From NCBI RefSeq assembly GCF_057098645.1, contig NZ_CM169472.1: a stretch of DNA of 64,000 nt; one strand, written 5' to 3'. Position numbers and translations under genes: made by a program. Shown here one piece after another: positions 15,001 to 40,843 of this stretch (the first letter of the stretch is position 1; every line of letters starts with the position of its first letter). The notes under the pieces are model-generated. The model made no database searches. It saw nothing but the letters and a program-made list of their open reading frames with translations, and had not been told where the DNA came from.

Positions 15001-15480
15001 TTAGAAAATCCGTTCACTCCAAAGGCTGTACGCACTGGTTCCGGCGACGCTGTGCTCCCAGTTGATACTCTCATAGGTAAATGACACAGACTCTTCCGGC
15101 TGTCCTGGGCTGTCGTTAATGGTATGGGGAACGGTAAGGCCAATGTTTGAGATCCGGGCGTTAGTCAGTTTCACCTTGTAGTACGGTTCATTAACACCAA
15201 AGCGGTTGGTGCGATAGAATACAAAATCACAGGTCAGACATTCATTCTCCGAAATGGCCTTGCCCAGCAGGGGGGAAGATTTATCCACCGGTTTCGTGAT
15301 GGTCAGCTCCTGGTGGTTGACATTCTGCGCCCGGCTCAGACCATGGGACAGTGACGTCACCATGATCTGATCCTGATGTGCAATCTGGGCTTTGTTACCG
15401 ATGGACGGCATTGACGAGCATCCGGATGAAATCAGCCCCTGAAGTTCTCCGTTCAGTGTCAGATAGACGGGATTTGCCAT
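15001..15480 (-). CDS. hcp: Hcp family type VI secretion tube protein (orphan)
   Basis: 159-aa product from MANPVYLTLNG... with Hcp-like motifs; aaggag RBS upstream of the ATG at 15480; the ORF track extends it upstream without protein-like sequence. Confidence 0.75.
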   Translation of the reverse strand: MANPVYLTLNGELQGLISSGCSSMPSIGNKAQIAHQDQIMVTSLSHGLSRAQNVNHQELTITKPVDKSSPLLGKAISENECLTCDFVFYRTNRFGVNEPYYKVKLTNARISNIGLTVPHTINDSPGQPEESVSFTYESINWEHSVAGTSAYSLWSERIF

Positions 15481-15718
15481 TGTTATTCTCCTTAAACTCA
15501 ATGAGTCGGAAGGACTGGCACGGTGCTGTTGTCCGTTGCCATATCCTGTCCGGTATTTTTCAGCAACAGCCAGCGGCTTAACAGCCCATCCAGCCGTTGG
15601 TTGATCTCTTTTGCTAGCGCCTGTGTGTCCTGATTCTGCGTGCGGGTCTCCTGTGATCTTACCCAGCAATAGTGGACACGCGGCTAAGTGAGTAAACTCT
15701 CAGTCAGAGGTGACTCAC

Positions 15719-16018
15719 ATGACAAAAACAGTATCAACCAGTAAAAAACCCCGTAAACAGCATTCGCCTGAATTTCGCAGTGAAGCCCTGAAGCTTGCTG
15801 AACGCATCGGTGTTACTGCCGCAGCCCGTGAACTCAGCCTGTATGAATCACAGCTCTACAACTGGCGCAGTAAACAGCAAAATCAGCAGACGTCTTCTGA
15901 ACGTGAACTGGAGATGTCTACCGAGATTGCACGTCTCAAACGCCAGCTGGCAGAACGGGATGAAGAGCTGGCTATCCTCCAAAAGGCCGCGACATACTTC
16001 GCGAAGCGCCTGAAATGA
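15719..16018 (+). CDS. insE: IS3 OrfA (InsE) transposase N-terminal HTH part
   Basis: [32 protein letters not shown]... Confidence 0.9.
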
Positions 16019-16881
16019 AGTATGTCTTTATTGAAAAACATCAGGCTGAGTTCAGCATCAAAGCAATGTGCCGCGTGCTCCGGGTGGCCCGCAGCGGCTG
16101 GTATACGTGGTGTCAGCGGCGGACAAGGATAAGCACGCGTCAGCAGTTCCGCCAACACTGCGACAGCGTTGTCCTCGCGGCTTTTACCCGGTCAAAACAG
16201 CGTTACGGTGCCCCACGCCTGACGGATGAACTGCGTGCTCAGGGTTACCCCTTTAACGTAAAAACCGTGGCGGCAAGCCTGCGCCGTCAGGGACTGAGGG
16301 CAAAGGCCTCCCGGAAGTTCAGCCCGGTCAGCTACCGCGCACACGGCCTGCCTGTGTCAGAAAATCTGTTGGAGCAGGATTTTTACGCCAGTGGCCCGAA
16401 CCAGAAGTGGGCAGGAGACATCACGTACTTACGTACAGATGAAGGCTGGCTGTATCTGGCAGTGGTCATTGACCTGTGGTCACGTGCCGTTATTGGCTGG
16501 TCAATGTCGCCACGCATGACGGCGCAACTGGCCTGCGATGCCCTGCAGATGGCGCTGTGGCGGCGTAAGAGGCCCCGGAACGTTATCGTTCACACGGACC
16601 GTGGAGGCCAGTACTGTTCAGCAGATTATCAGGCGCAACTGAAGCGGCATAATCTGCGTGGAAGTATGAGCGCAAAAGGTTGCTGCTACGATAATGCCTG
16701 CGTGGAAAGCTTCTTTCATTCGCTGAAAGTGGAATGTATCCATGGAGAACACTTTATCAGCCGGGAAATAATGCGGGCAACGGTGTTTAATTATATCGAA
16801 TGTGATTACAATCGGTGGCGGCGGCACAGTTGGTGTGGCGGCCTCAGTCCGGAACAATTTGAAAACAAGAACCTCGCTTAG
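16015..16881 (+). CDS. insF: IS3 OrfB (InsF) transposase catalytic DDE part
   Basis: 288-aa ORF in -1 frame relative to insE with integrase-core motifs. Confidence 0.9.
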
Positions 16882-24454: not shown

Positions 24455-24811
24455 TTACATCTGGGCTGAAAACTCACGTTCTAAGACATCAACAATGAGC
24501 TGGTTTTTTGAAATGGAATGTTGTCTGGCGACGATGGTCAGCCGCGAATCAATGTGATGAGGAACACGAAGCGTCAGGCGTTTTTGCTCTTCTTCTTCAC
24601 GAAAAGGGGCAATACCGTCCTCTTCACAATCCGCCATCCACTCATCCAGCGCGCTTTCGCCCTCACGATATAATGCCTCAATGCTTGTGGCTACAAAGTC
24701 ACAATAACCGTTTACATTGAGGAATTTGCCGCGAAATGCATTGATATCGGCTTCAAATGTCACTGCGGCTGGTTGACCTTTAATTGTGATAATGTTCGAT
24801 GCTTTATTCAT
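24455..24811 (-). CDS. HicB-like antitoxin (N-terminal HicB fold, C-terminal ribbon-helix-helix)
   Basis: 118-aa ORF; C-terminus RLTLRVPHHIDSRLTIVARQHSISKNQLIVDVLEREF resembles an RHH DNA-binding domain; 8-nt overlap with the upstream ORF. Confidence 0.55.
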   Translation of the reverse strand: MNKASNIITIKGQPAAVTFEADINAFRGKFLNVNGYCDFVATSIEALYREGESALDEWMADCEEDGIAPFREEEEQKRLTLRVPHHIDSRLTIVARQHSISKNQLIVDVLEREFSAQM

Positions 24812-25103
24812 AATCTACCCCTACACAGTTAACAAACCACTCCTTAAGACCTGCTACTGCGCCTTTATCCATCACATTCTTTGGATGTGGCTCATGTGTA
24901 CTGAATTTGGTCGTTCCAATCTGAAATTTCCTTCTGGACCCATTGTTATTTTTTATTGTTCCACCCGCCGCTTTAATGAGCGCAACAACATCATCCCATT
25001 TAATTCCAGATTTTGGCGGCTCCGTCATTACATCGTCGAATGTTTTTCTATGGCGGGAGCCTAGCGCGCTGACCTTAATCATACTATCAATCCATGACAT
25101 CAT
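24804..25103 (-). CDS. HicA-like (YcfA family) putative mRNA-interferase toxin
   Basis: 99-aa ORF (true start may be internal; MTEPPKSG... gives 74 aa); GSRRKF...THEPHP...GLKEW resembles HicA; translationally coupled to the downstream ORF. Confidence 0.45.
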   Translation of the reverse strand: MMSWIDSMIKVSALGSRHRKTFDDVMTEPPKSGIKWDDVVALIKAAGGTIKNNNGSRRKFQIGTTKFSTHEPHPKNVMDKGAVAGLKEWFVNCVGVDYE

Positions 25104-25186: not shown

Positions 25187-26959
25187 TCAACTCACTGCCC
25201 CCATAATCTTCAACTCCAGCTCATCCGGCACTTCGTTATACGACAGCACATGCAGCCCCGGCGCAAACAACCTTGCATAGCGAGCCAGCAAAGGGCGCAG
25301 CTGCGGCGGCACCAGCAGTACCGGGTCTTTCCCCGCCGCTTTCATCTGCTCTTTTACCTGCGGCATCGTGCTCTGGAACTGGTTGAGCATATTCGGGTCG
25401 ACCGGCACGCTGTCGAGCATCACTTTGCCGCCCTGTTGCGCCTGATTCACCACGTTGGTCAGCAGATTTTCCAGCTCATTATTCAGCATATACACCGTAA
25501 GCTCCTGCTTGCGAACGAACGGATGGGTAATGCTGCGCCGCAGCGCCAGGCGTACATCGGCTGCCAGCAGAATGTGATCTTTAGTCACCGTGCTACTGGC
25601 GACCAGCACGGTGGCGATGGTGACGATATCGCGCAGGGAAACGCCTTCGGTCAGCAGCGCACGGTACACTTTCAGCAACTGGCTGTAATTCAGCGCCGCG
25701 CTCAAATCCTCCGCCAGGCGCGGTGCCATCGACGACAGGCGGTTATGCAACTGTGTGATGTCATCATAGTTAAACAAATCAGGAATATAGCTGCGCACAA
25801 TCTTGTTTACATGGGTGGCAATCACGCTGGCGCTGTCGATTACCTGATACCCCATATTCAGCGCCTTCGCTTTCTGCGCGGGCTGGATCCAGGTCACCGG
25901 CATCCCGTACGCCGGGTCGTTCCCCAGCACGCCGTCTATCTCGCCGTAGGTTTCGCTGGAGGGCAGGGCCATCAGTTTATCCGCCGGAATATCCGCTTCA
26001 TCGGCCTTAATGCCGTTGATGAAAATAGCGTACTGGCTGGGCTTGAGGCGGAAATTTTCCCGAATGCGGATCTCCGGCAGCAGCACGCCGTTGCCGTCAG
26101 AAATCACCTGCCTCACGCCGCGAATCCGCTGGGTGAGTGGGTTGCCCTGCGCTTTATCGACCAGCGCTACTAGCTTGTAGCCAAGGCTTAAACTGATAGG
26201 CTCGATAAGCGGAATGGTTTCCCAACTGACCTGTTGCTCGCTGGTTTCAGTGATAGTGCGGGTCAGCGTTTCGAGGCTTTTCTCTTCCGCCTCCGCCGCC
26301 TGCGGGCGTTTGCTCATCCGCCAGCCGGTAAAACCCAGTAGGGCGCTGAACAGCAAAAACGGCAGGTGCGGCATCCCCGGCACCACTGCCAGCACGAACA
26401 TGATCCCAGTGGCGGTGTAGAGTACCGTCGGGCTTGCCAGCAGCTGGTGGCGCACGTCATGGGCGATATCGCCGTTATCGCTGACGCGGGTGACGATTAT
26501 CGCCGCCGCGGTGGAGAGCAGGAGGGAAGGGATCTGCGCCACCAGGCCGTCGCCGATGGTCATCAGCACATACTGCTGGAAGGCGGCATCGGCGCTCAGG
26601 TTGTATTTGAAGATCCCGATACAGACGCCGCCGATCAGGTTGATCGCCAGAATCATCATCCCGGCGATGGCGTCCCCGCGCACAAACTTAGATGCCCCGT
26701 CCATTGCGCCGTAGAAATCGGCCTCGCTGGCAACATCTTTACGCCGGGTTTGCGCCTGCGCCTGGTTGATCAACCCGGCGTTAAGATCGGCGTCAATCGC
26801 CATCTGCTTGCCGGGCATCGCGTCCAGGGTAAAGCGGGCAGAAACCTCGGAAATACGCTCGGCCCCTTTGGTGACGACGATAAAGTTGATTGTCAACAGC
26901 GTCAGTAAATCCGAGCGCGAAAGTATTATTGCCGCGCTGCACGGGCAGTCGATTTTCAA
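25187..26959 (-). pseudogene. lfhA: FlhA-like lateral-flagellar (Flag-2) export gene remnant, N-terminally truncated
   Basis: 590-aa ORF matching FlhA from ...VVTKGAERISEVSARFTLDAMPGKQM onward; N-terminal transmembrane region missing. Confidence 0.8.
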
Positions 26960-27656
26960 CGGTGGCGGGTTGTCGCCGTTAAATAAAATCAGCCCGTCTC
27001 ATCCGCCAAAACCTGCCACCGTGGCGGTGCCGGAAGAGACGGAGAAAAAAGCGCGCGACGTCAATGAGAAAACGGCGCTGCTGAAGAAGAAATCCGCCAC
27101 CGAGCTTGGTGAGCTGGCAACCAGTATCAACACCATTGCCCGTGATGCGCATATGGAAGCGAATCTGGAGATGGAGATTGTCCCGCAGGGATTACGCGTG
27201 CTGATTAAAGACGACCAGAATCGCAATATGTTCGAACGCGGCAGCGCGCAGATTATGCCGTTCTTTAAAACGCTGCTGGTGGAGTTAGCGCCAGTGTTCG
27301 ACTCGCTCGATAATAAAATTATTATTACCGGGCATACCGATGCGATGGCCTACAAAAACAATATCTACAACAACTGGAACCTTTCGGGTGACCGCGCGCT
27401 TTCGGCTCGTCGGGTGCTGGAAGAGGCCGGAATGCCGGAAGATAAAGTGATGCAGGTAAGCGCAATGGCGGACCAGATGCTGCTGGATGCCAAAAATCCG
27501 CAAAGCGCGGGCAATCGGCGTATTGAGATTATGGTGCTGACCAAAAGTGCGTCCGATACGCTGTATCAATACTTTGGTCAGCATGGGGATAAAGTGGTGC
27601 AGCCGCTGGTGCAAAAGCTGGATAAGCAGCAGGTGCTTTCGCAGCGAATGCGCTAA
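26895..27656 (+). pseudogene. lafU: MotB/LafU-like lateral-flagellar motor gene remnant (C-terminal OmpA-like domain only)
   Basis: C-terminal part of the 296-aa ORF has MotB/OmpA-C features (IIITGHTDAMAY..., NRRIEIMV); N-terminal part of the ORF overlaps lfhA antisense and is not protein-like; start coordinate approximate. Confidence 0.7.
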
Positions 27657-27726: not shown

Positions 27727-28782
27727 ATGCGTAAAATCATTCATGTGGATATGGACTGCTTTTTCGCAGCGGTGGAGATGCGCGACAATCCCGCCCTGCG
27801 CGATATCCCTATTGCTATTGGCGGTAGCCGCGAACGTCGGGGGGTGATCAGCACCGCCAATTATCCCGCGCGTAAATTTGGCGTACGTAGCGCTATGCCG
27901 ACAGGGATGGCGCTCAAATTATGCCCACATCTCACCTTGCTTCCGGGGCGCTTTGACGCCTACAAAGAAGCCTCAAATCATATCCGTGAAATCTTCTCGC
28001 GCTACACCTCGCGTATTGAACCGTTGTCACTGGATGAGGCTTATCTCGATGTCACCGATAGCGTCCATTGCCACGGTTCTGCGACCCTCATCGCCCAGGA
28101 AATCCGCCAGACGATCTTCAACGAGCTGCAACTGACGGCATCTGCGGGCGTGGCACCAGTAAAGTTTCTCGCCAAAATCGCCTCCGACATGAATAAACCC
28201 AACGGCCAGTTTGTGATTACGCCGGCAGAAGTTCCGGCATTTTTACAAACCTTACCACTGGCAAAAATCCCCGGCGTCGGCAAAGTCTCGGCGGCAAAAC
28301 TGGAAGCGATGGGGCTGCGGACCTGCGGTGATGTACAAAAGTGTGATCTGGTGATACTGCTTAAACGCTTTGGCAAATTTGGCCGCATTTTGTGGGAGCG
28401 TAGTCAGGGGATTGACGAACGCGATGTTAACAGCGAACGGTTGCGAAAATCCGTCGGCGTGGAACGCACGATGGCGGAAGATATTCATCACTGGTCTGAA
28501 TGTGAGGCGATTATCGAGCGGCTGTATCCGGAACTTGAACGCCGTCTGGCAAAGGTGAAACCTGATTTACTGATTGCTCGCCAGGGGGTGAAATTAAAGT
28601 TCGACGATTTTCAGCAAACCACCCAGGAGCACGTCTGGCCGCGGCTGAATAAAGCTGATCTAATCGCCACCGCGCGTAAAACCTGGGATGAACGCCGCGG
28701 CGGGCGCGGTGTGCGACTGGTGGGGCTGCATGTGACGTTGCTGGATCCGCAAATGGAAAGACAACTGGTGCTGGGATTATGA
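27727..28782 (+). CDS. dinB: DNA polymerase IV (Y-family translesion polymerase)
   Basis: 351-aa ORF starting [33 protein letters not shown]. Confidence 0.95.
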
Positions 28783-29231
28783 ATAACATACAAATAAGAA
28801 ACTATCAGCCTGGCGATTTTCAGCAACTATGCGCTATTTTCATTAGAGCGGTTACGATGACCGCCAGTCAGCATTATTCACCACAACAAATTGCCGCCTG
28901 GGCGCAGATTGACGAATCTCGCTGGAAGGAGAAACTCGCGAAATCACAAGTGCGGGTTGCAGTCATTAATGCACAACCGGTTGGTTTTATTTCCCGCATT
29001 GAACATTATATCGATATGTTATTTGTTGACCCTGAATACACCCGCCGTGGGGTTGCCAGCGCTTTGTTAAAACCTTTGATTAAGTCTGAATCCGAACTTA
29101 CGGTGGACGCAAGCATAACCGCAAAACCCTTTTTTGAACGTTATGGTTTTCAGACAGTTAAGCAGCAGCGCGTTGAATGCCGGGGCGCGTGGTTTATTAA
29201 TTTTTATATGCGTTATAAACCGCAACATTAA
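28779..29231 (+). CDS. yafP: GNAT-family N-acetyltransferase
   Basis: 150-aa ORF; start overlaps the dinB stop (ATGA). Confidence 0.85.
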
Positions 29232-29536
29232 ATCCAGCTTGCAATGAAAATAACGCCCGCCTAATATGTGCGCGTTTTCTTATTCCACAAACTGCAAGGA
29301 GGTAAATCATGACAAATCCTTTATCAATGACTCTTTGCAGACCTTTCCAGGATTAATTCTTTTTTTCTTGCCCTGGATTCGTCTGCCATTTCCTGATTTT
29401 TATATTTATATACTCTAAATAATTCGAGTTGCAGGAAGGCGACAAGCGAGTGAATCGCCAGGAGCTTACATAAGTAAGTGACTGGGGTGAACGAACGCAG
29501 TCGCAGTTCATGCAACTTGAAGTATGACGAGTATAA

Positions 29537-30067
29537 ATGGAATGGTACATGGGCAAATATATTCGTCCCTTATCCGATGCGGTATTTACCATCGCATCTG
29601 ATGACCTGTGGATCGAGAGTTTAGCGATCCAACAATTACACACCACGGCAAATTTACCCAACATGCAGCGCGTAGTGGGGATGCCAGATTTACACCCCGG
29701 ACGCGGCTACCCGATTGGCGCAGCGTTCTTCTCCGCAGGCCGTTTTTACCCAGCACTGGTCGGCAATGATATCGGCTGTGGCATGGCGCTATGGCAAACA
29801 GATATTCTCGCTCGCAAATACAACGCCGATAAGTTTGAAAAGCGATTATCAGCTTTGGATGACGTTGCTGAAGAAAGCTGGCTGGAGGAAAACCTGCCGT
29901 CAGCATTTGCACAGCATCCGTGGCGCAGCTCGCTTGGCTCTATCGGTGGCGGCAATCATTTCGCTGAACTGCAACAAGTTGATCAAATCATCAACGCTGA
30001 ACTGTTTGCACTGGCAGGTCTGGATGCGCAGCATCTGCAACTGCTGGTTCATAGCGGCTCGAGGGGG
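29537..30067 (+). pseudogene. RtcB-family RNA ligase (PrfH-coupled), 5' fragment interrupted by an IS element
   Basis: 187-aa ORF with RtcB-like motifs (GMPDLHPGRGYPIGAAF, GGGNHFAELQ, HSGSRG); reading frame broken by the insertion. Confidence 0.8.
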
Positions 30068-30094
30068 GGTGCCCCTATTAAGTTGTCAAGCATG

Positions 30095-31291
30095 TTATGA
30101 CGCCTGCGGGGTATAAAAAGTCCCGTCGCGCATCATGGCGAACAGAACGTCGCAGCGTCGTCTCGCCAGGGCGATAAGCGCCTGATTGTGTCGTTTTCCC
30201 TGACTCATTTTGCGGGTGTAGTAAGCCCTGGAGAGCGGATCCCTGAGCGCGGCGAAGGCCGACAGGAACAACGCCCGTTTGAGAGCTTTATTACCCCGTC
30301 GCGAGGGATGCTCACCGCGTATTGACGAGCCGGATCGCCGAGTTACCGGCGCAAGGCCAGCATAAGCAGCGAGATGTGCGGCAGAGGCGAAGGCGCGGCA
30401 GGCGACCTCGGTGAGGAGTCTGGCTGCGGTCCTGACACCGACTCCGGGCATACTGGTCAGGACCGGGTAAAGAGGGTGAGCAAGAACTCGCTGTTCTACC
30501 TCAAGCACCACCTCGTCTCTTTGCTTACGCAGCGTGATGAGCTGGAGTGCCAGACGTGGCAGTACTACGGCAGCGGCATTCGTGCCGGGAACGACGACGG
30601 TTTGTTCGGCCAGTGCCTGAGCTATGTCTGCTGCAAGGCGTTTACCCAGACGAGGCGCAAGTTTGCAGAGCTGGGCTGCCAGCTTCTTCTCACCCAGCGA
30701 AGCGAGTTTTTCTGGTGAGGGATATCGCTGGAGAAGATCGAGTACCGCCGGGTGATCAAGTCTCGGACCGAGAACGCGCTCCAGTGCCGGATGTATCTGG
30801 GTCAGAAGGCCGCGGATACGGTTGCTGGCCTGCGTTGTCTGTGCGGCAAGATCATCATCGAAGCCGCAGAGCATGGAGAGTTCGGCGATTTGCTCGTCAG
30901 CCAGTTTCAGCGTGCGTAGCGCGTGAGGCAGGGTACGGGCAGCTTCGGCAATGATGGCAGCGTCACGAGCATCAGTTTTAGCTTCACCGGCGTGTAAGTC
31001 GGCTATGCGGCGCATGGCCAGTCCAGGGAGGTATCCGACAAGGACTCCTTCTGAGCGGGCAACGGCGACAGGTAACGCACCGATGGTAGCTGGCTGATCA
31101 ACAACCAGCAGTATCTGACCATGTTGTTTCAGGTCAGATATTAGCGACCTGAGTTTGTTTTCGTCGTTGGGTAATGCTTTATCGAACAGGCGTTTACCTG
31201 AACGATTAATGGCTACAGCGTGATGCGTATCTTTACCGACATCAACGCCGATAAAGACCTGGACGGATTCGTAATCGCTGGATTCGGTCAT
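30095..31291 (-). CDS. IS110-family DEDD transposase/recombinase
   Basis: N-terminal IGVDVGKDTHHAV (RuvC-like DEDD) and C-terminal MPGVGVRTAARLL...AYAGLAPVTRRSGSS...GNKALKRAL motifs. Confidence 0.88.
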   Translation of the reverse strand: MTESSDYESVQVFIGVDVGKDTHHAVAINRSGKRLFDKALPNDENKLRSLISDLKQHGQILLVVDQPATIGALPVAVARSEGVLVGYLPGLAMRRIADLHAGEAKTDARDAAIIAEAARTLPHALRTLKLADEQIAELSMLCGFDDDLAAQTTQASNRIRGLLTQIHPALERVLGPRLDHPAVLDLLQRYPSPEKLASLGEKKLAAQLCKLAPRLGKRLAADIAQALAEQTVVVPGTNAAAVVLPRLALQLITLRKQRDEVVLEVEQRVLAHPLYPVLTSMPGVGVRTAARLLTEVACRAFASAAHLAAYAGLAPVTRRSGSSIRGEHPSRRGNKALKRALFLSAFAALRDPLSRAYYTRKMSQGKRHNQALIALARRRCDVLFAMMRDGTFYTPQAS

Positions 31292-31517
31292 TCTGTCTCC
31301 CTTGTATATGGGTTAACCAGATAACCACGGGGAGCAGGTACCGGCATCCACGTTACAGACGGTCCCGGCAAAAGTGCCTGACCTGACCCCTATTAGCGGT
31401 TACCAGCGCCCCACCAGACCCGGTGACATCACCCCCCGGATCATGGACGACTGGGGGCAGTAATCATGCCGGGTCTGGCTGGCTAACACCCCATTATAAG
31501 GGGTACGAATAAAGTAA
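31292..31517 (-). ncRNA. candidate IS110-type bridge (guide) RNA in the element's 5' non-coding arm
   Basis: ORF-free, about 225 nt; perfect 10-bp inverted repeat ccagacccgg/ccgggtctgg (31414-31423 and 31469-31478); 8- and 9-nt exact matches to the target flank and the element terminus. Confidence 0.4.
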
Positions 31518-32137
31518 CGGGGCAGTCTATTTTACAGCGGCATATTGCCTCGTTTTCGCATCATGGTTTGCCTGAAGGCAGTGACGATGCGCTACGGTAC
31601 ATTGCGGAACATGACGATGCGCTGGCATTTGCGCGTATTAATAGCCAGATGATCGCTTTGCGCATAATGCAACAGGTTAAGGCCACGGGAAGTCCGGTTC
31701 TGGATGTGGCGCATAACTTTGTTAGCGCGTGTCAAATCGGCGATCAACAGGGCTGGTTGCATCGTAAAGGTGCCACGCCGGATGACAACGGTCTGGTGAT
31801 TATTCCCGGTTCACGCGGTGATTACTCCTGGCTTGTACAGCCTGTTGCGAACGAAAAAACGCTCCACTCGCTGGCGCATGGGGCAGGGCGTAAATGGGGG
31901 CGCACCGAGTGTAAAGGGCGTCTGGCAGCGAAATACACGGCGACGCAACTCTCGCGTACTGAACTTGGCAGTCGGGTAATTTGTCGCGATAAACAACTCA
32001 TCTTTGAAGAAGCGCCACAAGCCTATAAATCGGCTGAAAGCGTGGTGCAATGTCTGGTGCAGGCCGGATTAATTATTCCTGTCGCGCGGCTGCGTCCGGT
32101 GCTAACGCTCAAAAACAGTGGAGGGAAAAAAGGATGA
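31518..32137 (+). pseudogene. RtcB-family RNA ligase (PrfH-coupled), 3' fragment
   Basis: Frame resumes ...GQSILQRHIASFSHHGLPEGSDDALRY...; ends 3 bp after the prfH start. Confidence 0.8.
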
Positions 32138-32748
32138 TCTTGCTACAACTCTCCTCTGCTCAGGGGCCGGAAGAATGTTGTCTCGCAGTGAAAAAGGCGC
32201 TGGACAGGCTGATTAAAGAAGCTGCTCGACAAGACGTCGTGGTAACAGTGCTGGAAACAGAAACAGGTCGTTACTCTGACACGCTGCGTTCGGCGCTGAT
32301 TTCTCTGGATGGCGACAACGCATGGGCGTTAAGCGAAAGTTGGTGCGGCACTATTCAGTGGATTTGTCCGAGTCCGTATCGGCCTCATCATGGGCGCAAA
32401 AACTGGTTTCTGGGCATTGGGCGTTTTACCGCTGATGAGCAGGAGCAATCCGATGCGATCCGGTATGAGACGCTGCGTTCGTCGGGGCCGGGTGGTCAAC
32501 ATGTCAATAAAACCGACTCGGCGGTACGCGCCACGCATTTGGCATCCGGTATTAGCGTGAAGGTTCAGTCAGAACGCAGTCAGCATGCTAACAAGCGGCT
32601 GGCACGATTGCTGATTGCCTGGAAGCTGGAGCAACAGCAACAGGAAAATAGCGCAGTGCGGAAATCGCAGCGGCGAATGTTCCATCACCAGATTGAACGT
32701 GGCAACCCGCGACGAACGTTCACAGGGATGGCTTTTATCGAAGGATAA
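32134..32748 (+). CDS. prfH: peptide chain release factor H homolog (GGQ motif), apparently full length
   Basis: 204-aa product [15 protein letters not shown]... with [16 protein letters not shown]; gaggg RBS; overlaps rtcB 3' end. Confidence 0.85.
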
Positions 32749-32804
32749 TGAAGGATGAAACTGCCGGAAGGCGATTAAACGCCATCCGGCAGCAAATCAA
32801 ATAA

Positions 32805-34262
32805 TTACTTCGCCGGAATTTCTTTCAGCAGTTCAGTCAGCAGTGTCCAGTAATGAGCTACGCTTTCGATGTGAACTTGCTCATCCGGAGAGTGTGGACC
32901 GGTGATTGTTGGCCCGATAGAAACCATGTCCATTTCCGGATACGGTTTTTTGAACAGACCACATTCCAGGCCCGCGTGGATAATCTGGATGTTCGGCGTC
33001 TTGTTGAACAGGCGCTGATAGGTTTCACGTACCAGATGCATCACCGGAGAATTAGCGTCCGGCTGCCAGCCAGGATATGCGCCTTTTGCTTCGGTTTTCG
33101 CGCCAGCCAGTTTACCCAGCGAATCCAGCATGCTCACCACGTAGTCTTTACCGCTGTCGATCAGAGAACGGATCAGGCAGTGAATTTCTACGTTATTGTC
33201 AGTCATGGTCACCACACCGACGTTCAGGGAGGTTTCGACCACACCTTTTGCCACGTCGGAATTGCGGATCACACCGTTCGGGGTGGCGTTCAGCAGACGA
33301 ATAAAGGTATCGCGAGATTTCGCAATCAGGGCAGCTTTATCGTTCGCTACAGAGTCCAGCAACAAGGCCAGATTTTTCTCTTTCTCTGCCAGCTCGTTTT
33401 TCAGGATCTCCTGATAGGTATTCACCAGAGATTTCAGGGCGTCGACTTTATCAGCTGCGACAGCAATGGTCGCAAAGGCTTCACGCGGGATGGCGTTACG
33501 CAGTGTGCCGCCGTTGAAATCAATAAGACGCAGATCCAGTTCTTCTGCATGACCCGCCAGGAAGCGCACCAGCAGTTTGTTGGCATTACCCAGGCCAACG
33601 TGGATTTCACCGCCGGAGTGACCGCCTTTCAGACCTTTTAAGGTTAACTTGAAGGTTTCAAAACCAGCTGGAACCGCTTCACGATCTAAATGCAGGTTGG
33701 AGGTGAAGTCGATACCCCCCGCACAACCCATGTAGATTTCACCTTCTTCTTCGGAGTCGGTGTTAATCAGAATATCAGCCTGCAACCAGTTGCTCTGTAA
33801 GCCGAACGCACCGTCCATACCGGCTTCTTCGGTCATGGTCAGCAGCACTTCCAGCGGGCCGTGAACCACGTTTTCGTCAGCCAGAACCGCCAGCGCAGAG
33901 GCCATACCAATGCCGTTATCCGCACCCAGTGTGGTGCCGCGCGCTTTAACCCATTCGCCATCAATATAAGGCTGGATAGGATCTTTCGTGAAGTCATGCA
34001 CGGTGTCGTTATTTTTCTGCGGCACCATATCGAGGTGGGCCTGTAAGACGACCGGTTTACGATTTTCCATACCTGCTGTAGCAGGTTTACGAATCAGGAT
34101 ATTACCTACCTGATCGCGTTCGACATGGAAACCTTTCTCTTTTGCCCAACCAACAATGTATTCAGCGAGTTGCTCTTCATGATAGGACGGGTGAGGAATA
34201 GAACAGATTTTGGCAAAAATATCCCACAGCGGTTGTGGAGATAATTGAGACAGTTCAGACAC
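32805..34262 (-). CDS. pepD: cytosol non-specific dipeptidase (aminoacyl-histidine dipeptidase)
   Basis: 485-aa ORF, M20-family metallopeptidase motifs. Confidence 0.92.
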   Translation of the reverse strand: MSELSQLSPQPLWDIFAKICSIPHPSYHEEQLAEYIVGWAKEKGFHVERDQVGNILIRKPATAGMENRKPVVLQAHLDMVPQKNNDTVHDFTKDPIQPYIDGEWVKARGTTLGADNGIGMASALAVLADENVVHGPLEVLLTMTEEAGMDGAFGLQSNWLQADILINTDSEEEGEIYMGCAGGIDFTSNLHLDREAVPAGFETFKLTLKGLKGGHSGGEIHVGLGNANKLLVRFLAGHAEELDLRLIDFNGGTLRNAIPREAFATIAVAADKVDALKSLVNTYQEILKNELAEKEKNLALLLDSVANDKAALIAKSRDTFIRLLNATPNGVIRNSDVAKGVVETSLNVGVVTMTDNNVEIHCLIRSLIDSGKDYVVSMLDSLGKLAGAKTEAKGAYPGWQPDANSPVMHLVRETYQRLFNKTPNIQIIHAGLECGLFKKPYPEMDMVSIGPTITGPHSPDEQVHIESVAHYWTLLTELLKEIPAK

Positions 34263-40640: not shown

Positions 40641-40716
40641 GCCGATATAGCTCAGTTGGTAGAGCAGCGCATTCGTAATGCGAAGGTCGTAGGTTCGACT
40701 CCTATTATCGGCACCA
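40641..40716 (+). tRNA. thrW: tRNA-Thr (CGT anticodon)
   Basis: gccgatatagctcagttggtagagcagcgcattcgtaatgcgaaggtcgtaggttcgactcctattatcggcacca, 76 nt. Confidence 0.95.
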
Positions 40717-40843
40717 TTTAAATCAAGTAGTTACTCCATATTTAAATACACCACCTTTTCCTGCTGTGCCGTATTTGTGCCATTGTAACCCTGGCAATTA
40801 ATCAAAATACTGTTCTGACATCAGGCAATACAGGTGCAGACAT

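Follow-up and report, generated by a model that had tools for sequence, protein, structure and literature searches.

The rtcB2-prfH module of Escherichia coli was examined in a 64,000-nucleotide (nt) stretch of DNA (NCBI RefSeq assembly GCF_057098645.1, contig NZ_CM169472.1), which is called the window here and whose positions are used throughout. The window very probably carries an rtcB2-prfH operon in which rtcB2 has been inactivated by the insertion sequence (IS) ISEc20, prfH has stayed intact, and the defence against ribosome-damaging toxins has been lost for a reason other than that in strain K-12. The original prediction, made from the letters of this DNA, had proposed a probably non-functional pair with a cause unlike that in K-12, and the two cases do differ in this way: K-12 has an internal deletion and the window an IS insertion, from which the loss of function would follow. 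The case is an ordinary gene loss in a known E. coli ribosome rescue-and-repair pair, and the only mildly new point is that ISEc20 appears to have landed in the G run of rtcB2 more than once.

On the plus strand, rtcB2 is present as two fragments that match the PrfH-coupled RtcB models NF007153 and TIGR03073 ('release_rtcB'). The 5' fragment (29549-30069) covers profile positions 1-172 of 379 with 281 bits in NF007153 and ends in a run of seven G (G7, 30063-30069), and the 3' fragment (31520-32137) covers positions 175-378 with 335 bits. Both scores are below the NF007153 cut-off of 407 bits, in comparison with 625 bits for an uninterrupted relative, and the locus does not encode a full-length RtcB2 ligase as a single polypeptide. 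An open reading frame (ORF) for a 398-amino-acid (aa) transposase of the IS110 family lies between the two fragments, which bears out the proposal that the ligase partner is split by an IS element. In genomes that are 99.9% identical, RefSeq places the start of rtcB2 at 29549; the start first suggested, 29537, is also an in-frame ATG but lies four codons upstream of it. Alignment to the RtcB proteins of P. horikoshii and T. thermophilus (2EPG and 4DWR) placed the break directly after HSGSR. The NDIGCG, GGNHF and HSGSR motifs are left on the 5' piece, the AHN motif with its HN metal ligand and the HGAGR nucleotidylation motif are left on the 3' piece, and no chain encoded at the locus holds all of the RtcB catalytic residues. 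In RtcB, the motifs of the 5' piece supply Asp, Cys, His and His metal ligands, and those of the 3' piece supply the third His ligand and the His of HGAGR that becomes guanylylated. Because the metal ligands and the guanylylated His are divided in this way, neither piece can be a ligase.

The original prediction would have failed if the two fragments did not reconstitute a full-length RtcB when joined. Together they cover the RtcB2 profile save two positions, and to that extent the expectation held, but clean removal of the element does not give back an open gene. Deleting 30070-31519 (1450 nt), boundaries that were validated at other sites, leaves a tract of ten G and shifts the frame by -1 with respect to the canonical gene of 1140 nt. 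Deleting 30066-31517 (1452 nt) produces an in-frame product of 378 aa, one residue below the canonical 379 aa, which reads SRAGQS where canonical alleles read SRGVGQS or SRGGGQS. Complementation between two RtcB fragments as a split protein was considered and rejected, given that the break falls within a metal-binding motif and that no start codon is available to the 3' fragment at the junction; according to the ORF list, the earliest in-frame start of this fragment is at 31568, a TTG.

The release factor gene is whole. prfH (32134-32748, plus strand) encodes a 204-aa product with GGQ at residues 120-122, as had been described from the sequence, and scored 327.5 bits against the NCBIfam equivalog TIGR03072 (cut-off 166.65). 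Compared with the E. coli PrfH resolved by electron cryomicroscopy (PDB 7SA4, chain 8), 199 of 204 residues are identical (97.5%), and the five differences (K20R, A31T, V36A, V175A and R176L) leave the motif of the GGQ domain untouched. The protein is of the class-I release factor homologue type, with a GGQ and without the GTPase-interacting N-terminal domain. Neither comparison revealed an inactivating change, in agreement with the earlier impression that this partner looks functional. The overlap of prfH with the 3' end of the rtcB-like gene was also confirmed: the prfH ATG (32134-32136) and the rtcB2 TGA (32135-32137) overlap as ATGA, a layout shared by annotated genomes, and prfH has its own Shine-Dalgarno sequence, GGAGG, at 32120-32124. 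Strain C325 encodes an identical PrfH next to an rtcB2 that is not interrupted, the same protein is present on at least 1000 contigs, and prfH was intact in every IS-bearing genome inspected.

Over 29400-32800 the window is 99.9% identical to genomes of E. coli O145:H28, and positions 1 to 40722 are collinear with one of these genomes. The genes are arranged in the order lafU, dinB, yafP, rtcB2, prfH, pepD (on the opposite strand), gpt and frsA, of which the part from dinB to frsA agrees with annotated genomes, and RefSeq annotation of O145:H28 genomes already presents the configuration of an IS-split rtcB2 followed by prfH. Among 5426 complete E. coli genomes, 2675 have a contiguous rtcB2-prfH pair and 34 have the IS-split form; the remaining genomes mostly carry the K-12-type deletion, in which only 42% of the joined pair is covered, or further reductions. 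The IS-bearing allele is fixed in 25 near-identical complete genomes. In the K-12 strain MG1655 the yafP-pepD interval holds only the pseudogenes ykfJ (b0235) and prfH (b0236), which agrees with the ykfJ remnant and truncated prfH that the original prediction had named for this position.

The likely consequence of the insertion can be judged from what is known of the two proteins. Peptide release by E. coli PrfH requires 70S ribosomes with a 16S rRNA cleaved in the decoding centre and does not take place on intact ribosomes, and RtcB2 religates the cut 16S rRNA in damaged 30S subunits (Tian et al. 2022, PMC9304027). In strain ATCC 25922, deletion of rtcB2 or prfH leads to colicin E3 sensitivity (Maviza et al. 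2022, PMC9223846). Plasmid-borne prfH alone gives no protection and overexpressed rtcB2 alone protects (PMC9223846; PMC13166195), and genomic RtcB1 confers no colicin E3 resistance. The chromosomal rtcB2-prfH operon of E. coli is a two-gene system that acts on ribosomes damaged by colicin E3 or by ribotoxins of the CdiA-CT type, which cut the 16S rRNA between A1493 and G1494; PrfH frees the peptide from the damaged ribosome and RtcB2 religates the rRNA. ISEc20 enters runs of C, which are runs of G on the coding strand of rtcB2, and an RNA from its left end most likely guides this insertion; the landing site in rtcB2 is the G tract encoding the conserved GSRG(V/G)GQ motif. After the insertion, prfH keeps its own ribosome-binding site, now 2.07 kb downstream of the operon start and behind 1.45 kb of antisense IS. 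PrfH cannot restore ribosomes without the ligase, and for this reason the module is predicted to be non-functional as a defence. By analogy with the deletion strains, protection against ribotoxins is most likely lost in the window strain.

Several points weigh against so complete a loss. Single knock-outs of rtcB2 or prfH show only weak 16S cleavage compared with the double knock-out (Maviza et al., PMC9223846), and given this weaker cleavage PrfH alone may keep some benefit. A simple scan of 29150-32850 for sigma-70 promoters and terminators found no promoter-like site on the plus strand, even upstream of rtcB2, and is therefore no guide to the transcription of prfH. It is quite unlikely, to our judgement, that prfH has been kept for a use of its own, releasing peptide so that the subunits are recycled, degraded or repaired by an enzyme such as RtcB1, which would make the locus a reduced working rescue system. 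The intact prfH of all IS-bearing genomes inspected, its own GGAGG, the difference between single and double knock-outs and the fixation of the IS-bearing allele in 25 near-identical genomes would all fit such a role, but they have to be set against the failure of plasmid prfH to protect on its own, the sensitivity caused by rtcB2 deletion, the lack of colicin E3 resistance from genomic RtcB1 and the inactivity of PrfH on intact ribosomes. In addition, the insertion looks recent because the IS copies are 99.9% identical, and an intact prfH therefore needs no selection as its explanation. The reading of a defence lost through rtcB2, with prfH left behind, is the one that we retain.

ISEc20 occupies 30070-31519 on the minus strand, is 1450 bp long and has made no target duplication, according to annotation and to reconstruction of empty sites; in the orientation of its transposase it reads CGTTAC...TAATAGGGGCA. 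Its recombinase coding sequence (30095-31291, minus strand, 398 aa) contains the DEDD_Tnp_IS110 (PF01548) and Transposase_20 (PF02371) domains, that is, both the DEDD RuvC-like domain and the Tnp (serine) domain, and scored 238.6 bits against NF033542, 'IS110 family RNA-guided transposase' (cut-off 140). The coding sequence is flanked by 228 nt of non-coding sequence upstream (the left end) and 25 nt downstream (the right end). The element has no terminal inverted repeats, its ends agreeing at only 13 of 40 positions when compared in that way. Of the 5426 complete genomes, 1119 contain ISEc20 over 80% or more of its length, and the number of places per genome with any match has a median of one and a maximum of nine.

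How ISEc20 inserts could be read from other copies. All ten copies examined, which are at different loci, have a left junction of the form C(n)G-TTAC and a right junction of the form GGGGCA-C(n). When CGTTAC...GGGGCA is removed from the copy in ynjI, the resulting 240-nt sequence with a C8 run is found with 100% identity in many genomes, and removal of the copy between fadL and yfdF restores the C9 run of K-12; the run predicted to have preceded the copy in dgcE is C11. Since the same removal reproduces the empty sites of both ynjI and fadL-yfdF, the element in the window is delimited as 30070-31519, and ISEc20 inserts cleanly into C runs, neither duplicating nor losing target bases. Other solutions were tried and discarded. 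The boundaries adopted first, 30066-31517, took C325 as the 'empty' site, but the C325 allele is unique among 2674 contiguous alleles and retains bases derived from the element. Models of conservative exchange that took the canonical G6-T-G4 as the original allele and duplicated a core of CC, CA, CG or a single C failed to reproduce both junctions, and K-12 proved to be the wrong allele for the empty ynjI site, for which other genomes give an exact match. A look-up of the exact recombinase protein yielded other copies only as IS-length contigs with single flanks and no empty sites. As a separate observation, the prophage Rz/i-spanin regions of several genomes contain, beside phage lysis genes, a stand-alone and 100% identical stretch of bases 3-62 from the left end of ISEc20, which may be what is left of a truncated copy; in other strains (L009 and RM12581) full copies are located in a prophage holin region, and the copy at 1139210-1140692 of O145:H28 strain RM12581 is 31 nt longer near the right end, with a transposase annotated as 414 aa instead of 398.

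The target of ISEc20 within rtcB2 varies among alleles. The canonical allele has CGC-GGGGGG-T-GGGG-CAG (SRGVGQS, as in genome L008), i.e. G6-T-G4, whereas an intact allele with an uninterrupted G11 across codons 172-175 (SRGGGQS) is found in 58 records including AUSMDU00014361 (L024). The G11 allele offers ISEc20 a ready target and at the same time places a run prone to slippage within a conserved catalytic motif. A second IS-bearing lineage, represented by 2014C-3061, carries the same element in the same orientation at the same site as the window, and its junctions sum exactly to G11, indicating a clean insertion into the G11 allele. The flanks of the two lineages diverge by 3.3% in the 5' fragment, 1.8% in the 3' fragment and 4.7% in prfH, with the nearest difference only 4 nt from the left junction, and the run at this junction is one C longer in the second lineage (CCCCCG vs CCCCG). 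The flanks of the second lineage are 99.8-100% identical to those of IS-free genomes of its own type (L008 and L024), and the ISEc20 copies of the two lineages differ at one of 1452 nt (99.93% identical). Divergent flanks, different junction runs and a near-identical IS make independent insertion into the same rtcB2 site in two lineages much the simplest reading of these alignments.

Sharing of one insertion, by descent or by horizontal transfer of an IS-bearing segment, would account for the identity of element, orientation and site and for the single difference between the IS copies. We regard it as very improbable, because the flanks differ by the percentages given above up to 4 nt from the left junction, the junction runs have different lengths, the flanks of the second lineage match IS-free genomes of its own type, and no tract of identical flanking sequence extends from the IS in both lineages as recombination would leave. 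A point against our account of the locus is the length of the G tract remaining after removal of the element: instead of 11 nt it counts 10 in the window and Z1323HEC0422, and 9 in RM12581. Either the tract slipped after the insertion, or it was out of frame beforehand, or the assemblies miscount the homopolymer. In strain Z1323PEC0008 (L025, positions 198-260) the same tract reads as about 63 consecutive G and rtcB2 is annotated as frameshifted, which is either a real expansion or an assembly artefact. Two independent landings of ISEc20 remain our preferred account.

Strain C325 (L003) is the only IS-free complete genome with the rtcB2-prfH allele of the window lineage, and the 26 genomes in the class of at least 99% identity agree in number with the 25 near-identical IS-bearing ones together with C325. 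Of 4760 flank positions, only 3 distinguish C325 from the window, and C325 has in common with the IS-bearing genomes L001 and L023 a derived T at 32085, where the window and the outgroups have C. Its rtcB2 is in frame and encodes 378 aa, reading CGA-GGG-CG-GGG-CAG (SRAGQS), an allele (L003, 2020-2040) that equals window positions 30063-30065 joined to 31518-31525 and is not repeated at any other of the 2674 contiguous sites in complete genomes. The CG within it is the first dinucleotide of ISEc20 and is present in no empty site. The exact 378-aa protein was found on 136 contigs, and the C325 lineage is therefore no one-off. Because its right half has three C compared with seven at the right junction of the window, the C325 allele cannot precede the window junctions. 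As the insertion rule bars it as a precursor, the allele is probably the footprint of a loss of the element that happened to restore the reading frame.

These observations could be taken further, to a contingency-type defence locus toggled by a bridge recombinase, in which the G tract is both a recurrent landing site of ISEc20 and a slippage repeat, the repair module is turned off again and again in E. coli populations and now and then turned on, and the 378-aa 'RAG' allele marks a reactivation. The insertion in the window would then be one state of a reversible switch, and cells would regain the ligase by losing ISEc20 from the slippage-prone tract. Lineages with flanks 3-5% divergent that carry a 99.93% identical IS at one site, with left runs of different length and a single-nucleotide difference 4 nt away, are compatible with such a switch, as are the closeness of C325 to the window and its 32085T, the element's first two bases CG kept in its unique in-frame allele, the 136 contigs with the 378-aa protein and the one genome with a tract expanded to about 63 G. 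We nevertheless consider the switch unlikely. The C325 allele is unlike the product of canonical IS110 excision, which would be a plain C/G run, and an illegitimate deletion is possible; the nesting of C325 within the IS-bearing clade depends on one polymorphic position; the 378-aa protein lacks one residue of the conserved HxGSRGxG motif; the insertion is found in only 34 of 5426 genomes; and homopolymer lengths in assemblies are error-prone. A plain insertion that inactivated rtcB2, with an accidental restoration of frame in C325, is the interpretation that we carry forward.

We then considered how ISEc20 recognizes its target, of which no description was found in the literature searched. 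By analogy with IS621 (PMC11208160), the 228-nt left end upstream of the recombinase gene was predicted to encode a bridge RNA (31340-31485, minus strand) with two stem-loops (minimum free energy -98.3 kcal/mol, z = -3.2). On the 5' side of loop 1, a candidate left target guide ACUGCCCCCA (31452-31461, minus strand) agrees with ACTGCCCC in rtcB2 and with the C run of each of the 10 insertion sites, and on the 3' side a candidate right target guide GGGGGGUG (31430-31437, minus strand) is complementary to CACCCCCC; these two guides would read a C-rich target. A candidate left donor guide UAAUAGGGGUCA (31384-31395, minus strand) shares nine identical bases with the element's right end (TAATAGGGG), a match of a length that arose in 24 of 5000 dinucleotide shuffles, and a candidate right donor guide GUAACGUG (31349-31356, minus strand) is the reverse complement of CACGTTAC at the predicted circle junction (32 of 5000 shuffles). 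Both donor matches together occurred in none of the 5000 shuffles, and all four candidate guides carry CA or UG at the expected core position. The circularised element is predicted to have the junction TAATAGGGGCACGTTAC, in which TTGACA from the right end (30084-30089, minus strand) would stand 17 nt upstream of TACTTT (31511-31516), a predicted junction promoter that was read from the sequence.

The bridge RNA has points against it as well. An Rfam scan of 28.5-33.5 kb gave no match to a bridge-RNA family; the two-stem-loop structure is kept in two relatives, but among the three sequences changes on both sides are seen in only 2 of 73 predicted pairs; and in the minimum-energy fold the C-run and G-run candidate target guides pair with each other. 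A search for the circle-junction sequence did not find it, and the short IS-length contigs from the recombinase look-up are not junctions. IS110 relatives with 87% identity were set aside as material for covariation, being decayed pseudogenes and too few, with right ends that do not track changes in the donor guides. The bridge RNA that most likely guides the insertion of ISEc20 is a predicted one.

Several further features surround the module. Between yafP and rtcB2, outside the module proper, lies an intergenic repeat of the enterobacterial repetitive intergenic consensus (ERIC) type (29408-29531, plus strand), which gave a sub-threshold Rfam match to V_AS5 ('Vibrio RNA AS5', 48.5 bits vs a gathering score of 96). 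It contains GTGAATCGCCAGGAGCTTACAT and AAGTAAGTGACTGGGGTGAACG, which we take to be near-matches to the ERIC1R and ERIC2 primer sites. The repeat, the rtcB2 5' fragment and ISEc20 together span 29408-31519, with no strand assigned to the combined feature. At 28779-28782 dinB and yafP overlap by 4 nt, and the yafN-yafO toxin-antitoxin pair of K-12 is absent from the window and the related genomes inspected. Annotation of the collinear genome L022 places remnants of the lateral (Flag-2) flagellar system, namely a truncated flhA-like pseudogene and lafU, just 5' of dinB (25187-27656), a hicAB toxin-antitoxin pair at 24455-25082, and, at 15001-16881, what looks like another IS-associated gene remnant, in which a type VI secretion gene of the Hcp family precedes a truncated ORF and a copy of IS3. 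From window position 40641-40722 on, Z1323HEC0422 has a tRNA-Thr and then an integrase/primase (TOPRIM-DUF927) island; the window does not have this island and continues downstream of 40722 with core genes (ecp, pao), as do the O145:H28 RM strains.

RtcB2-PrfH has already been characterised biochemically, structurally and genetically, and the case in the window adds little on the module itself. It predicts that O145:H28 and the second lineage, which is associated with cattle and humans, would be sensitive to colicin E3 and to toxins of the CdiA-CT(ECL) type despite carrying prfH, and the 378-aa allele is a candidate revertant. ISEc20 occurs in roughly one in five complete E. coli genomes, and for this element the case provides a testable target rule, namely clean insertion of CGTTAC...GGGGCA into runs of at least 8 C, and what appears to be a natural example of one gene hit twice independently by this element.

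The closest known counterpart is the RtcB2-PrfH operon of ATCC 25922 (PMC9304027, PMC9223846, 7SA4), which has the same locus, gene order and ATGA overlap and a PrfH 97.5% identical to that of the window. The rtcB fragments of the window jointly cover the RtcB2 profile but for two positions, in line with this operon, whereas in the window the gene, cut after codon 172 by an IS of 1450 bp, can no longer encode the ligase. The remnant of ykfJ and prfH in K-12 shares with the window the yafP-pepD locus, and its module is inactive, as that of the window most likely is. In K-12, by contrast, the middle of the operon has been deleted and both genes are truncated, while the window keeps all of the coding sequence and a whole prfH; K-12 also has yafNO between dinB and yafP and the window does not. 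On the side of the element, ISEc20 resembles IS621 and the IS110-subgroup recombinases that use bridge RNAs (PMC11208160, PMC11208158) in its DEDD and Tnp-domain recombinase, its long non-coding left end (228 nt) and short right end (25 nt), its lack of inverted repeats and its site-specific insertion. The likeness would extend to the two predicted stem-loops, with segments matching the element's own ends (9 nt in sense and 8 nt in antisense) and the target, and to the junction promoter TTGACA-17 nt-TACTTT that would be rebuilt in the circle. The two part at the target, which is like a repetitive extragenic palindrome (REP) for IS621 and a C homopolymer for ISEc20, and at the core, which in ISEc20 appears to be CA in the donor and usually CC in the targets, unlike in IS621-type elements; because donor and target cores usually differ in this way, the core of ISEc20 is not visibly duplicated at the left junction.

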